Shown in pieces: positions 5,273-8,154 of a stretch of 64,000 bases of DNA. Numbering within the stretch: the first letter of the stretch is position 1; each line of letters begins with the position of its first letter. The translations under genes and the position numbers were made by a program. The notes beneath the pieces were generated by a model. It was not told the origin of the DNA. It did not search any database and was given only the letters and a program-made list of their open reading frames with translations. Source of the stretch: Escherichia coli (GTDB lineage: Bacteria; Pseudomonadota; Gammaproteobacteria; Enterobacterales; Enterobacteriaceae); assembly GCF_044647545.1 (NCBI RefSeq), contig NZ_CP172818.1, one strand, 5' to 3'.

Positions 5273-5310
5273 AATCAATAATGTCAGATATGAAAAGCGG
5301 AAACATATCG

Positions 5311-6576
5311 ATGAAAGCGATCTTAATCCCATTCTTATCTCTTCTGATTCCGTTCACCCCGCAATCTGCATTCGCTCAGAGTGAGCCGGAGCTGAAGCTG
5401 GAAAGTGTGGTGATTGTCAGTCGTCATGGTGTGCGTGCTCCAACCAAGGCCACGCAACTGATGCAGGATGTCACCCCAGACGCATGGCCAACCTGGCCGG
5501 TAAAACTGGGTTGGCTGACACCGCGCGGTGGTGAGCTGATCGCCTATCTCGGACATTACCAACGCCAGCGTCTGGTAGCCGACGGATTGCTGACGAAAAA
5601 GGGCTGCCCGCAGCCTGGTCAGGTCGCGATTATTGCTGATGTCGACGAGCGTACCCGTAAAACAGGCGAAGCCTTCGCCGCCGGGCTGGCACCTGACTGT
5701 GCAATAACCGTACATACCCAGGCAGATACGTCCAGTCCCGATCCGTTATTTAATCCTCTAAAAAATGGCGTTTGCCAACTGGATAACGCGAATGTGACTG
5801 ACGCGATCCTCAGCAGGGCAGGAGGGTCAATTGCTGACTTTACCGGGCATCGGCAAACGGCGTTTCGCGAACTGGAACAGGTGCTTAATTTCCCACAATC
5901 AAACTTGTGCCTTAACCGTGAGAAACAGGACAAAAGTTGTTCATTAACGCAGGCATTACCATCGGAACTCAAGGTGAGCGCCGACAATGTCTCATTAACC
6001 GGTGCGGTAAGCCTAGCGTCAATGCTGACGGAGATATTTCTCCTGCAACAGGCACAAGGAATGCCGGAGCCGGGGTGGGGAAGGATCACTGATTCACACC
6101 AGTGGAACACCTTGCTAAGTTTGCATAACGCGCAATTTTATTTACTACAACGCACGCCAGAGGTTGCCCGCAGTCGCGCCACCCCGTTATTGGATTTGAT
6201 CATGGCAGCGTTGACGCCCCATCCACCGCAAAAACAGGCGTATGGTGTGACATTACCCACTTCAGTGCTGTTTATCGCCGGACACGATACTAATCTGGCA
6301 AATCTCGGCGGCGCACTGGAGCTCAACTGGACGCTTCCTGGTCAGCCGGATAACACGCCGCCAGGAGGTGAACTGGTGTTTGAACGCTGGCGTCGGCTTA
6401 GCGATAACAGCCAGTGGATTCAGGTTTCGCTGGTCTTTCAGACTTTACAGCAGATGCGTGATAAAACGCCGCTATCATTAAATACGCCGCCCGGAGAGGT
6501 GAAACTGACCCTGGCAGGATGTGAAGAGCGAAACGCGCAGGGCAGTGTTCGTTGGCCGGTTTTACGCAAATCGTGA
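5311..6576 (+). CDS. appA: Periplasmic acid phosphatase / phytase AppA with aberrant C-terminus (about 421 aa; canonical about 432 aa)
   Basis: MKAILIPFLSLLIPFTPQSAFA signal peptide and RHGVRAP histidine acid phosphatase motif; C-terminus ends ...NAQGSVRWPVLRKS instead of the canonical ...NAQGMCSLAGFTQIVNEARIPACSL. Confidence 0.85.
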   Translation: MKAILIPFLSLLIPFTPQSAFAQSEPELKLESVVIVSRHGVRAPTKATQLMQDVTPDAWPTWPVKLGWLTPRGGELIAYLGHYQRQRLVADGLLTKKGCPQPGQVAIIADVDERTRKTGEAFAAGLAPDCAITVHTQADTSSPDPLFNPLKNGVCQLDNANVTDAILSRAGGSIADFTGHRQTAFRELEQVLNFPQSNLCLNREKQDKSCSLTQALPSELKVSADNVSLTGAVSLASMLTEIFLLQQAQGMPEPGWGRITDSHQWNTLLSLHNAQFYLLQRTPEVARSRATPLLDLIMAALTPHPPQKQAYGVTLPTSVLFIAGHDTNLANLGGALELNWTLPGQPDNTPPGGELVFERWRRLSDNSQWIQVSLVFQTLQQMRDKTPLSLNTPPGEVKLTLAGCEERNAQGSVRWPVLRKS

Positions 6577-6581
6577 ATGAA

Positions 6582-6840
6582 CGGGGGGACGACGGGCGAC
6601 GGGGGCCGCGGGGAAGACGACGGGACGCGGGGCTATCCGCCAGCGCGGCTGTTCGCGTTGCGGGTCGCGGCGCGGGCCCCGTGGTGCGCCTGCCGCTGGG
6701 CGCCTGGCCTGCTCGGCCTGCGGGGGTTGGTGCGGCGGGGCCGCTTGTCCCGCCGGGCGCCGCGCGCGTCCGCGGGCGGCCGTCGGCGCTCGGCGCGGGC
6801 GGGCCGCGCCTCGGGGGCCGCCCCCCCCGGGCGCCTCTCC
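6582..6840. other. Anomalous extremely GC-rich segment (about 260 bp, mostly G/C) between appA and cspH
   Basis: Composition completely unlike the flanks; G-tracts and a C8 run; only composition-driven Arg/Gly/Pro/Ala ORFs on both strands. Confidence 0.8.
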
Positions 6841-6841
6841 A

Positions 6842-7054
6842 TCAAGACAAATAAACATTTGCCGCTGTTGGTCCTCGCAGGCCATTTACGCGGCAAAATT
6901 CCACGCGTAATCCTGGTATAAGCACTTCTGCGTCGCGGGGAGTGAATGCGGAAATATGGACCTGGACTTCTTTACGACCGTCGGAGGGGATAATGAATCC
7001 TTTGCCGCTTTTGCGATCAAAGGTTTTGACAATTCCTGTCATTTTACGGGACAA
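6842..7054 (-). CDS. cspH: Cold shock-like protein CspH
   Basis: 70-aa [16 protein letters not shown]...; cold-shock domain. Confidence 0.9.
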
Positions 7055-7339
7055 ACAAATTCCTTACTGAAAATACTGCGCTGCACTATACGGGGTTAAT
7101 AAAATAAAGCCAGCGATATTTAAGACCGCCGGACGGCTAAAATAAAATTTGCTTAATCTCAATTATCATGCGTTAATAGCTGCGTCGGTTTGAAAGACAG
7201 ACAGCATACAAAGTAGTTTACTAAAGCAGTTCTCATTATCAGGCATTATCCCCTTCTTTTGAGTCTCTCTCCTGAACACTAAGTAGTTTCTGTATTAAAG
7301 CCCTGTTTGCCGAAAGGCCCAAAATGAAGGAAGTAAAAT

Positions 7340-7552
7340 ATGTCTAATAAAATGACTGGTTTAGTAAAATGGTTTAACGCAGATAAAGGTTTTGGCTTTA
7401 TCACTCCTGATGATGGCAGCAAAGACGTTTTCGTCCATTTCACCGCCATCCAGAGCAATGAATTCCGCACGCTGAACGAAAATCAGAAAGTTGAATTTTC
7501 TATTGAGCAGGGGCAACGTGGTCCCGCGGCAGCGAACGTTGTTACGCTCTAA
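7340..7552 (+). CDS. cspG: Cold shock protein CspG
   Basis: 70-aa [29 protein letters not shown]... with long 5' leader as in csp genes. Confidence 0.92.
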
Positions 7553-7751
7553 GGTTGCCGTTATTACTCAACATCTCCATTTCCGCTGTCCATGTTGTCA
7601 TGGTTCACAGTACCGCACATCGGCATTCGATGTGACGGAGCGAAATCCTTTAGGGGCAAAGTGTATTTTTTGTAAATCGACGATGATCACCTTTGATAAC
7701 GTCGCGCTGCAAATACGCACTGAGCATGCGCCGCTGGATTTCACAAAATAA
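7518..7751 (+). CDS. ymcE: Small protein YmcE (Sfa-like); start uncertain, overlaps the cspG 3' end
   Basis: ORF ...[35 protein letters not shown]... ending 7751; start codon choice (GTG 7518) is tentative. Confidence 0.5.
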
Positions 7752-7945
7752 TATCAGGCTCCCTCGTGGAGCCTTTTTTATATCTGCCTTATTTTTCTTC
7801 AACGCTGTATGTATAGTAAGCGATAACCTGTTGATTATTGAATCTTTCGGGGAGATGGCTTATAACATTTCTTACCTGACCAGGGTACCGGGAACCAACA
7901 CCTTACTGGCGTGTTGCTGTCATTTAAGACCAGAAGAGGTTAACA

Positions 7946-8119
7946 GTGAATATTGAAGAGTTAAAAAAACAAGCCGAAACGGAAATCGCTGACTTTATCG
8001 CGCAAAAAATCGCCGAGCTGAACAAGAATACAGGGAAAGAAGTCTCTGAAATTCGCTTCACCGCACGAGAAAAAATGACCGGGCTTGAAAGTTATGATGT
8101 CAAAATCAAAATAATGTGA
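7946..8119 (+). CDS. gnsA: GnsA (57 aa), GTG start
   Basis: GTG-initiated ORF VNIEELKKQAETEIADFIAQKIAELNKNTGKEVSEIRFTAREKMTGLESYDVKIKIM; missed by the ORF track because under 60 aa. Confidence 0.75.
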   Translation: MNIEELKKQAETEIADFIAQKIAELNKNTGKEVSEIRFTAREKMTGLESYDVKIKIM

Positions 8120-8125
8120 TTTTGT

Positions 8126-8154
8126 GAACATCACCCCGTGCGAGGTGATGTTCC
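8126..8154. terminator. Hairpin terminator between convergent gnsA and yccM
   Basis: gaacatcacc...ggtgatgttc inverted repeat. Confidence 0.5.

Follow-up and report, generated by a model that had tools for sequence, protein, structure and literature searches.

The 86-codon open reading frame at 7491-7751 of the analysed DNA (a stretch of 64,000 nt from Escherichia coli, hereafter the window) contains ymcF, an already known and annotated gene of 62 codons that occupies 7563-7751 and that a preliminary description had mislabelled ymcE. Comparison with related loci resolves its start in favour of the non-canonical codon ATT at 7563, 10 nt past the cspG stop codon (7550-7552), and the cspG and ymcF coding sequences therefore do not overlap. 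Taken together, the data make it very probable that 7563-7751 is ymcF and that the preceding 7491-7562 is open by chance in the +1 frame of cspG and is not translated with ymcF. The features of the locus are collected in Table 1.

Table 1. Features of the cspG-ymcF locus, in window coordinates.
Feature	Position	Strand	Description and support
cspG	7340..7552	+	70-aa cold-shock protein, first gene of the unit; NF007378 CspG equivalog, 179 bits; RefSeq
Non-coding 5' extension of the mechanical ORF	7491..7562	+	24 codons covering the cspG 3' end, in its +1 frame, and the 10-nt spacer
SD-like TAAGGT over the cspG stop (TAA 7550-7552)	7550..7555	+	Putative ribosome-binding role
ymcF start codon, ATT	7563..7565	+	Non-canonical; RefSeq CDS start; comparison of homologous codons
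ymcF CDS	7563..7751	+	62 codons and TAA; PF23641; homologues; codon-position entropy
First cysteine knuckle of YmcF	7587..7598	+	C9-P-C-C12, then H13-G-S-Q-Y-R; 39-member alignment
Second cysteine knuckle of YmcF	7662..7673	+	C34-I-F-C37; 39-member alignment; AF2 model
Intrinsic terminator	7756..7780	+	7-bp G+C-rich stem, 5-nt loop, T run; terminator scan; 4 nt past the ymcF stop
ymcE (sfa)	7726..7956	+	76 codons, frame differs from that of ymcF; NF007379, PF15939, RefSeq
gnsA	7946..8119	+	57 codons, downstream neighbour; PF08178, 122 bits; RefSeq

The ORF listing of the window gives a + strand frame from TTG 7491 to TAA 7749-7751, and the preliminary description was accurate as to its coordinates, its beginning within cspG and its cysteine-containing stretches (FRCPCCHG, and the C-x-x-C of CIFC). 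Its length by itself is no evidence of coding, since mechanical ORFs of similar size lie in the same 1-kb region (87 aa at 7693..7956; 63 aa, antisense, at 7279..7470). A search of the 86-aa translation against the Pfam and NCBIfam profiles returned the YmcF-like family PF23641 as its sole match (163 bits against a cut-off of 27, E 1.9e-48), covering the whole profile (1-62/62) and confined to residues 25-86 of the frame; NCBIfam offered no family above cut-off for this frame, and the PHROGs searched hold no family for YmcF or YmcE. The label ymcE (sfa) had to be withdrawn: the YmcE models find nothing in the translation of 7491-7748 and match that of 7726-7953 instead, in another frame (NF007379, 184.3 bits against a cut-off of 163; PF15939, 186.3 bits), which rules out that identity. 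RefSeq names the gene "cold shock small protein YmcF" at the place of 7563-7751 in FDAARGOS_497, where the DNA is 100% identical, and K-12 carries the same gene models. The region is close to universal in the species, as megablast of 7300-8150 found it in 5,416/5,426 complete E. coli genomes. YmcF of K-12 (b4723) is the product of the same gene, with 62 aa and an ATT start 10 nt past cspG, and the window protein differs from the K-12 type by only one or two residues (e.g., E55 here, D in the K-12 type); it is 95% identical to the commonest E. coli cluster when ATT is read as Met.

Homologous proteins fall into 137 clusters, the named ones almost all from Enterobacteriaceae. An alignment of 39 members contains 15 invariant and 11 nearly invariant columns, with P10, C12 and C37 invariant and C9, C11, H13 and C34 nearly so. 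The window protein has the family's length of about 62 residues and carries its two conserved motifs, one of them GAKCIFCK.

To place the start, 80 loci encoding YmcF relatives were gathered, one genome per species (the search gave 191 loci in all), and their csp-ymcF junctions were read. Twenty-five orthologous loci share one geometry (a 70-codon csp, its stop, a 10-nt spacer and 62 codons). Across these, variation in 7491-7549 falls at cspG third positions, which are the second codon positions of the extension frame (20/20 variable), and entropy by codon position in the extension frame is 0.21/1.36/0.40, the pattern of cspG. Within 7563-7751 the corresponding values in the ymcF frame are 0.45/0.25/1.17, with variation at third positions. 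In-frame stops interrupt the extension upstream of ATT in 12 of the 25 loci, and none of the candidate starts at 7491, 7503, 7518 and 7539 is conserved across the set. Twelve loci have no ATG, GTG or TTG at all between the last in-frame stop and ATT/ATC; these are five of the same-geometry loci (L007, L014, L040, L050 and L063) and seven of a Kosakonia type, in which the csp stop is in frame with ymcF, 3 codons upstream. The homologous start position in relatives is ATT/ATC or, in other genera, ATG.

The patterns of codon-position variation demonstrate that purifying selection, as far as aligned sequences record it, acts on the 62 ymcF codons only, and the apparent overlap with cspG is on this comparison an artefact of taking the longest ORF. 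The preliminary description had proposed such an overlap, which is not seen with the annotated and comparatively supported start at ATT 7563. It was right that an internal start is used and that the choice is not obvious, the true start offering no ATG, GTG or TTG. It had also suggested examining conservation of the overlapping frame across Enterobacteriaceae, and synonymous-site variation within it. The first comparison leaves the overlapping part devoid of coding constraint, with its interrupted frames and cspG-phased variation; the second refutes coding there and supports coding of 7563-7751.

Across Enterobacteriaceae and prophages, start codon identity tracks the gene upstream. ATT or ATC is the start in 37/37 loci with an adjacent intact csp, with no ATG within 12 codons, and the distance from the csp stop to the ymcF start is 9-10 nt in 36 of these and 29 nt in one. 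They come from Escherichia, Citrobacter, Salmonella, Kosakonia, Yokenella, Trabulsiella, Siccibacter, Pluralibacter and Intestinirhabdus. Where there is no adjacent intact csp (Klebsiella, Raoultella, Enterobacter, Leclercia, Lelliottia, Silvania, Atlantibacter and others), 36/38 loci have an ATG start, in the same place or one beside it, usually behind a stronger Shine-Dalgarno (SD) sequence such as CAGGAG; the two exceptions, L034 and L078, keep ATT. The contrast of 37/37 with 36/38 overstates the statistical weight, because the ATT/ATG split follows clades and may reflect as few as 4-6 independent events. We did not find this pattern described in the literature searched, and regard it as a modest comparative addition, in which a link between a non-canonical start and translational coupling in the cold-shock response could be tested simply.

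Traces of a lost csp are visible at some of the ATG-type loci. In Klebsiella and Raoultella, global alignment scored against shuffles recognised the remains of a csp 3' end in the 70 nt upstream of ymcF (z 6.8-7.9), and it gave weaker signals in several others (z 4-5); blastn-short found almost nothing upstream of the ATG-type genes. Citrobacter sedlakii (L018, 2297-2689) has a single 130-aa ORF in which a degenerate cold-shock domain (CSD), reading KEFN for KWFN and VFVPS for VFVHF, is fused in frame to YmcF, and the ymcF start position there is ATG. No Rfam cspA-like 5'UTR was found upstream of the stand-alone ATG-type ymcF in seven loci.

The junction itself resembles that of a coupled gene pair, with a short, conserved stop-to-start distance and an SD-like element over the stop codon. 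All 26 csp-ymcF junctions that were aligned carry T[AG]AGG, and the remainder of the 10-nt spacer varies freely; in the window 8 nt separate G7554 from the ATT. The preliminary description had raised coupling as a question, and it proves a reasonable one given the 10-nt gap, the TAAGG over the cspG stop and the distribution of ATT and ATG across genera. We infer from these features that translation of ymcF is coupled to that of csp and deliberately weak. Ribosomes would translate the gene directly after terminating on cspG, or after recruitment by the TAAGG over the stop codon, and the weakness of the AUU start would keep YmcF at a low, constant proportion of CspG, which is very abundant. At loci where csp decayed, the ymcF start would have become ATG with a stronger Shine-Dalgarno sequence.

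Published reporter assays place initiation at the near-cognate codons AUU and AUC at about 1-2% of that at AUG, and infC and pcnB were then counted as the only confirmed AUU starts in E. coli. The ymcF gene has the sequence properties of an AUU-initiated gene, namely AUU/AUC at the start position and, in the 12 loci described above, no usable canonical in-frame start. Initiation factor IF3 discriminates against AUU, the ratio of initiation factors to ribosomes rises in the cold, and AUU mRNAs have been described as the most cold-sensitive in vitro, competing poorly at low temperature. Such behaviour sits uneasily with a role in cold shock, unless it is offset by coupling or by a relaxation of IF3 discrimination. 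A possible, still tentative reading is that the AUU/AUC start of ymcF and of its paralog ynfQ is a maintained device, which makes synthesis depend on csp-terminating ribosomes and possibly on the IF3-to-ribosome ratio, fixes a low YmcF:Csp proportion, and gives way to AUG with a stronger SD whenever csp is lost. Were this true, the functional AUU starts of E. coli, of which very few are listed (infC, pcnB), would gain two cold-shock genes, and Csp proteins would be implied to be functional partners of the YmcF family.

Somewhat unlikely, and the most serious competitor, is initiation at AUU 7563 independently of cspG, with the 30S subunit binding TAAGG de novo, ATT kept for low or IF3-sensitive expression, and the association with csp due to shared ancestry. 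It would account for the SD-like AGG at fixed spacing in all loci, the ATG-type ones included, and for the retention of ATT in L034 and L078; infC is an example of an AUU that functions as a start by itself under IF3 regulation, and the clade structure of the split fits shared ancestry. It accounts poorly for the absence of ATG from all 37 csp-adjacent loci when it is the start in 36 of the 38 others, for a stop-to-start distance held at 9-10 nt although the spacer sequence varies, and for the appearance of ATG with csp decay in separate lineages (the Klebsiella/Raoultella relics, the C. sedlakii fusion and Enterobacter). A hairpin masking the SD, pairing cspG 7526-7533 with spacer positions 7554-7561, was considered and rejected. 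It is the minimum free energy structure in E. coli but not significant (z -1.47), and it is not conserved: RNAalifold returned no consensus pair in the 26 junctions, and complementarity in Citrobacter occurs only in a shifted register.

Production of a CspG-YmcF fusion, by +1 frameshifting at CUC-UAA-G (in relatives CUU-UGA-G, similar to the prfB site) or by stop-codon readthrough, is very improbable. The ymcF frame is indeed +1 relative to cspG, the junction reads CTT TGA GG in several relatives and in the Qin and other prophage copies, and C. sedlakii encodes a 130-aa in-frame CSD-YmcF ORF in its genome. However, the frame relation of csp and ymcF is not conserved, since the csp stop lies in the ymcF frame at the Kosakonia-type loci; the shift site lacks an SD-like stimulator 3 nt upstream, the ATT/ATC is invariant next to spacer codons that show no constraint, and ATG-type loci have no csp at all. 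In C. sedlakii, moreover, conserved motifs for nucleic-acid binding are gone from the fused CSD, and ymcF has an ATG of its own.

A genuine long frame, starting within cspG at TTG 7491 or 7503, GTG 7518 or TTG 7539 and giving a protein of 70-86 aa, has an equally slight chance of being correct and is already contradicted by the comparative data. The frame is open from 7491 in the window and in several Escherichia and Citrobacter loci, and some database entries annotate versions of 70-72 aa. These longer versions carry Ile at the start position of the 62-aa protein, which implies an ATT-type codon there, and the PF23641 profile begins at residue 25 of the long translation; the stops in 12 of 25 orthologs, the lack of any conserved candidate start and the cspG wobble pattern at all 20 second positions tell against it equally. 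That the flagged frame is a chance ORF in the 3' untranslated region of cspG, encoding nothing, is so improbable as to be negligible and is already refuted by conservation as seen in the alignments: small ORFs of this size commonly arise by chance and neither PHROGs nor NCBIfam gave a match above cut-off, against which stand the 137 homologous clusters with their 26 invariant or nearly invariant residues, the third-position-dominated variation, a curated Pfam family and the RefSeq and K-12 gene models.

An intrinsic terminator follows ymcF directly, so that cspG and ymcF would form a two-gene unit. The terminator folds at -12 kcal/mol (z -2.96), with 0/200 shuffles as good, and a hairpin with a T run follows ymcF in about 31/36 csp-adjacent loci and in the prophage copy. 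Sequence comparison demonstrates that the order of elements is fixed: the csp stop is followed by a 10-nt spacer with GG at its beginning, then by ATT, 62 codons and an intrinsic terminator, on enterobacterial chromosomes as on lambdoid prophages (cspI-ynfQ in Qin). In K-12 the cspA thermoregulator model of Rfam (RF01766) spans the cspG 5'UTR and CDS and continues ~45 nt into ymcF; published work has established the cspG 5'UTR as a cold thermometer. ymcF would be co-transcribed with cspG from a cold-shock promoter and a thermosensing 5'UTR. In published transcriptomes cspG is co-regulated with ymcF and cspI with ynfQ, ynfQ is described in the literature as "cold shock induced", and a tagged YnfR protein, whose gene starts 2 nt after the ynfQ stop, is cold-induced. 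Translation and cold induction of ymcF itself may thus be presumed from annotation names and from the literature on co-regulation and on the paralog ynfQ. Both ymcF and ynfQ were reportedly first described by Zhang and colleagues (Zhang et al. 2018), from cold-shock ribosome profiling.

The gene that properly bears the name ymcE (b0991; PF15939, NF007379) adjoins ymcF on the same strand in another frame; its product has no sequence relation to YmcF and no YmcF-type cysteine knuckles. Its reading frame shares 26 nt with the end of ymcF and continues across the terminator, the T run of which encodes its phenylalanine-rich segment GAFFISALFFF. It was found only in Escherichia, where it is disrupted by start loss, stops or frameshifts in 6/7 loci compared and intact only in K-12; among L002-L006 and L035, the ATG is replaced by AGG or ATA in four loci, and stops or frameshifts occur in four. 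With its position across the ymcF terminator and its poor conservation even among Escherichia loci, ymcE is doubtful as a conserved protein-coding gene. Multicopy suppression phenotypes of this region have been attributed to gnsA, and ymcE-gnsA is listed as a toxin-antitoxin pair in some papers and in Pfam names. The 21-aa ynfR (L086 1189-1254, - strand; L083 3192-3230, + strand) is likewise encoded across a terminator hairpin. In ymcE it is the 5' part that crosses the homologous hairpin (window 7756-7780), the 3' half in the same frame (…GAF…), so that the two look like positional counterparts.

The AF2 model of YmcF (pLDDT 71.5 overall, 84-89 over residues 11-40) places short strands on the flanks of both cysteine knuckles, and its top structural neighbours are all zinc ribbons, with TFIIE-alpha first. 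Zinc-ribbon/rubredoxin-like miniproteins such as the TFIIE-alpha zinc finger (1vd4) share with YmcF two CxxC knuckles ~21 residues apart and short strands; a phage homolog of YmcF is labelled "TFIIE alpha finger" in nr, and a published AF3 model of the paralog YnfQ has been described as rubredoxin-like with a metal site. We predict, with less assurance than for the gene itself, that YmcF is a single-metal (Zn) zinc-ribbon miniprotein with C9/C12 and C34/C37 as ligands. It may act on nucleic acid or on the transcription/translation machinery in cold adaptation, beside the Csp RNA chaperone. YmcF would then point to an uncharacterised zinc-ribbon partner that travels with Csp genes on phages. 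Membership of the Rieske [2Fe-2S] proteins was rejected, as only the box-II-like CPCCHGSQY aligns (E 0.056, 15 residues, a motif-level match) and there is no box I.

Several irregularities were observed near the locus. Between the 3' ends of appA and cspH, a block of about 246 bp (6582-6828), 80-88% G+C and nearly devoid of A on the + strand, stands in place of ~13 bp in FDAARGOS_497, a strain that is otherwise 99.9% identical. None of the 5,426 complete E. coli genomes has it, nor do PLSDB plasmids, and it contains only weak 10- and 14-bp repeats. appA (5281-6854) appears disrupted: its long ORF stops at 6576, where the C-terminus (…ERNAQGSVRWPVLRKS) has no in-frame continuation, another frame (6552-6854), which starts MAGFTQIVNE…, continues through the G+C-rich block, and there is a 1-nt indel relative to FDAARGOS_497. 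In the window appA directly adjoins cspH, where K-12 (L082) has gfcA and IS1D just upstream of cspH, and within 6577-7340 the alignment to the K-12 stretch does not begin until about 6841. Farther downstream, torS (window ~9313 onward; L001 3514-3851) is annotated as a frameshifted pseudogene in the near-identical FDAARGOS_497.

Comparable gene orders recur on prophages and phages. The lambdoid prophage moron cassette consists of lysis genes, csp, a ymcF-like gene, gnsB and terminase, and its order and junction geometry match those of cspG-ymcF-(ymcE)-gnsA. The csp/ymcF-like/gns order is repeated in prophages and in phage Tritos, where the ymcF-like copies likewise lie 10 nt after csp with an ATT start. 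In L083/L084 (859-5387) and L085 (phage Tritos), csp/ymcF-like/gnsB sits between lysis genes (holin, lysozyme, Rz-like) and terminase. Unlike these, the window copy is chromosomal, between appA/cspH and yccM, and no phage genes were seen in the annotated flanks examined (appA to torS). As the csp/ymcF-like/gnsB cassette occurs in lambdoid prophages and phages, the chromosomal cspH-cspG-ymcF-ymcE-gnsA cluster is probably of prophage ancestry.

The paralog YnfQ (b4724) is encoded downstream of cspI in the Qin prophage and is 66% identical to YmcF over all 62 residues; YnfU, an earlier candidate for the paralog, was rejected, as it gave no alignment whatever. Like ymcF, ynfQ has an ATT start 10 nt past the csp stop and a terminator after its own stop. 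It differs in being prophage-borne, in being followed by ynfR/ynfN/gnsB rather than ymcE/gnsA, and in having TGA, not TAA, as the junction stop. Among genes with established AUU starts, infC and pcnB share the start codon of ymcF, and infC is in addition cold-stress inducible, its AUU being a target of IF3 discrimination. While infC is autoregulated and free-standing, ymcF follows a highly translated gene at a distance of 10 nt, and the occurrence of AUU as its start correlates with whether that gene is present.
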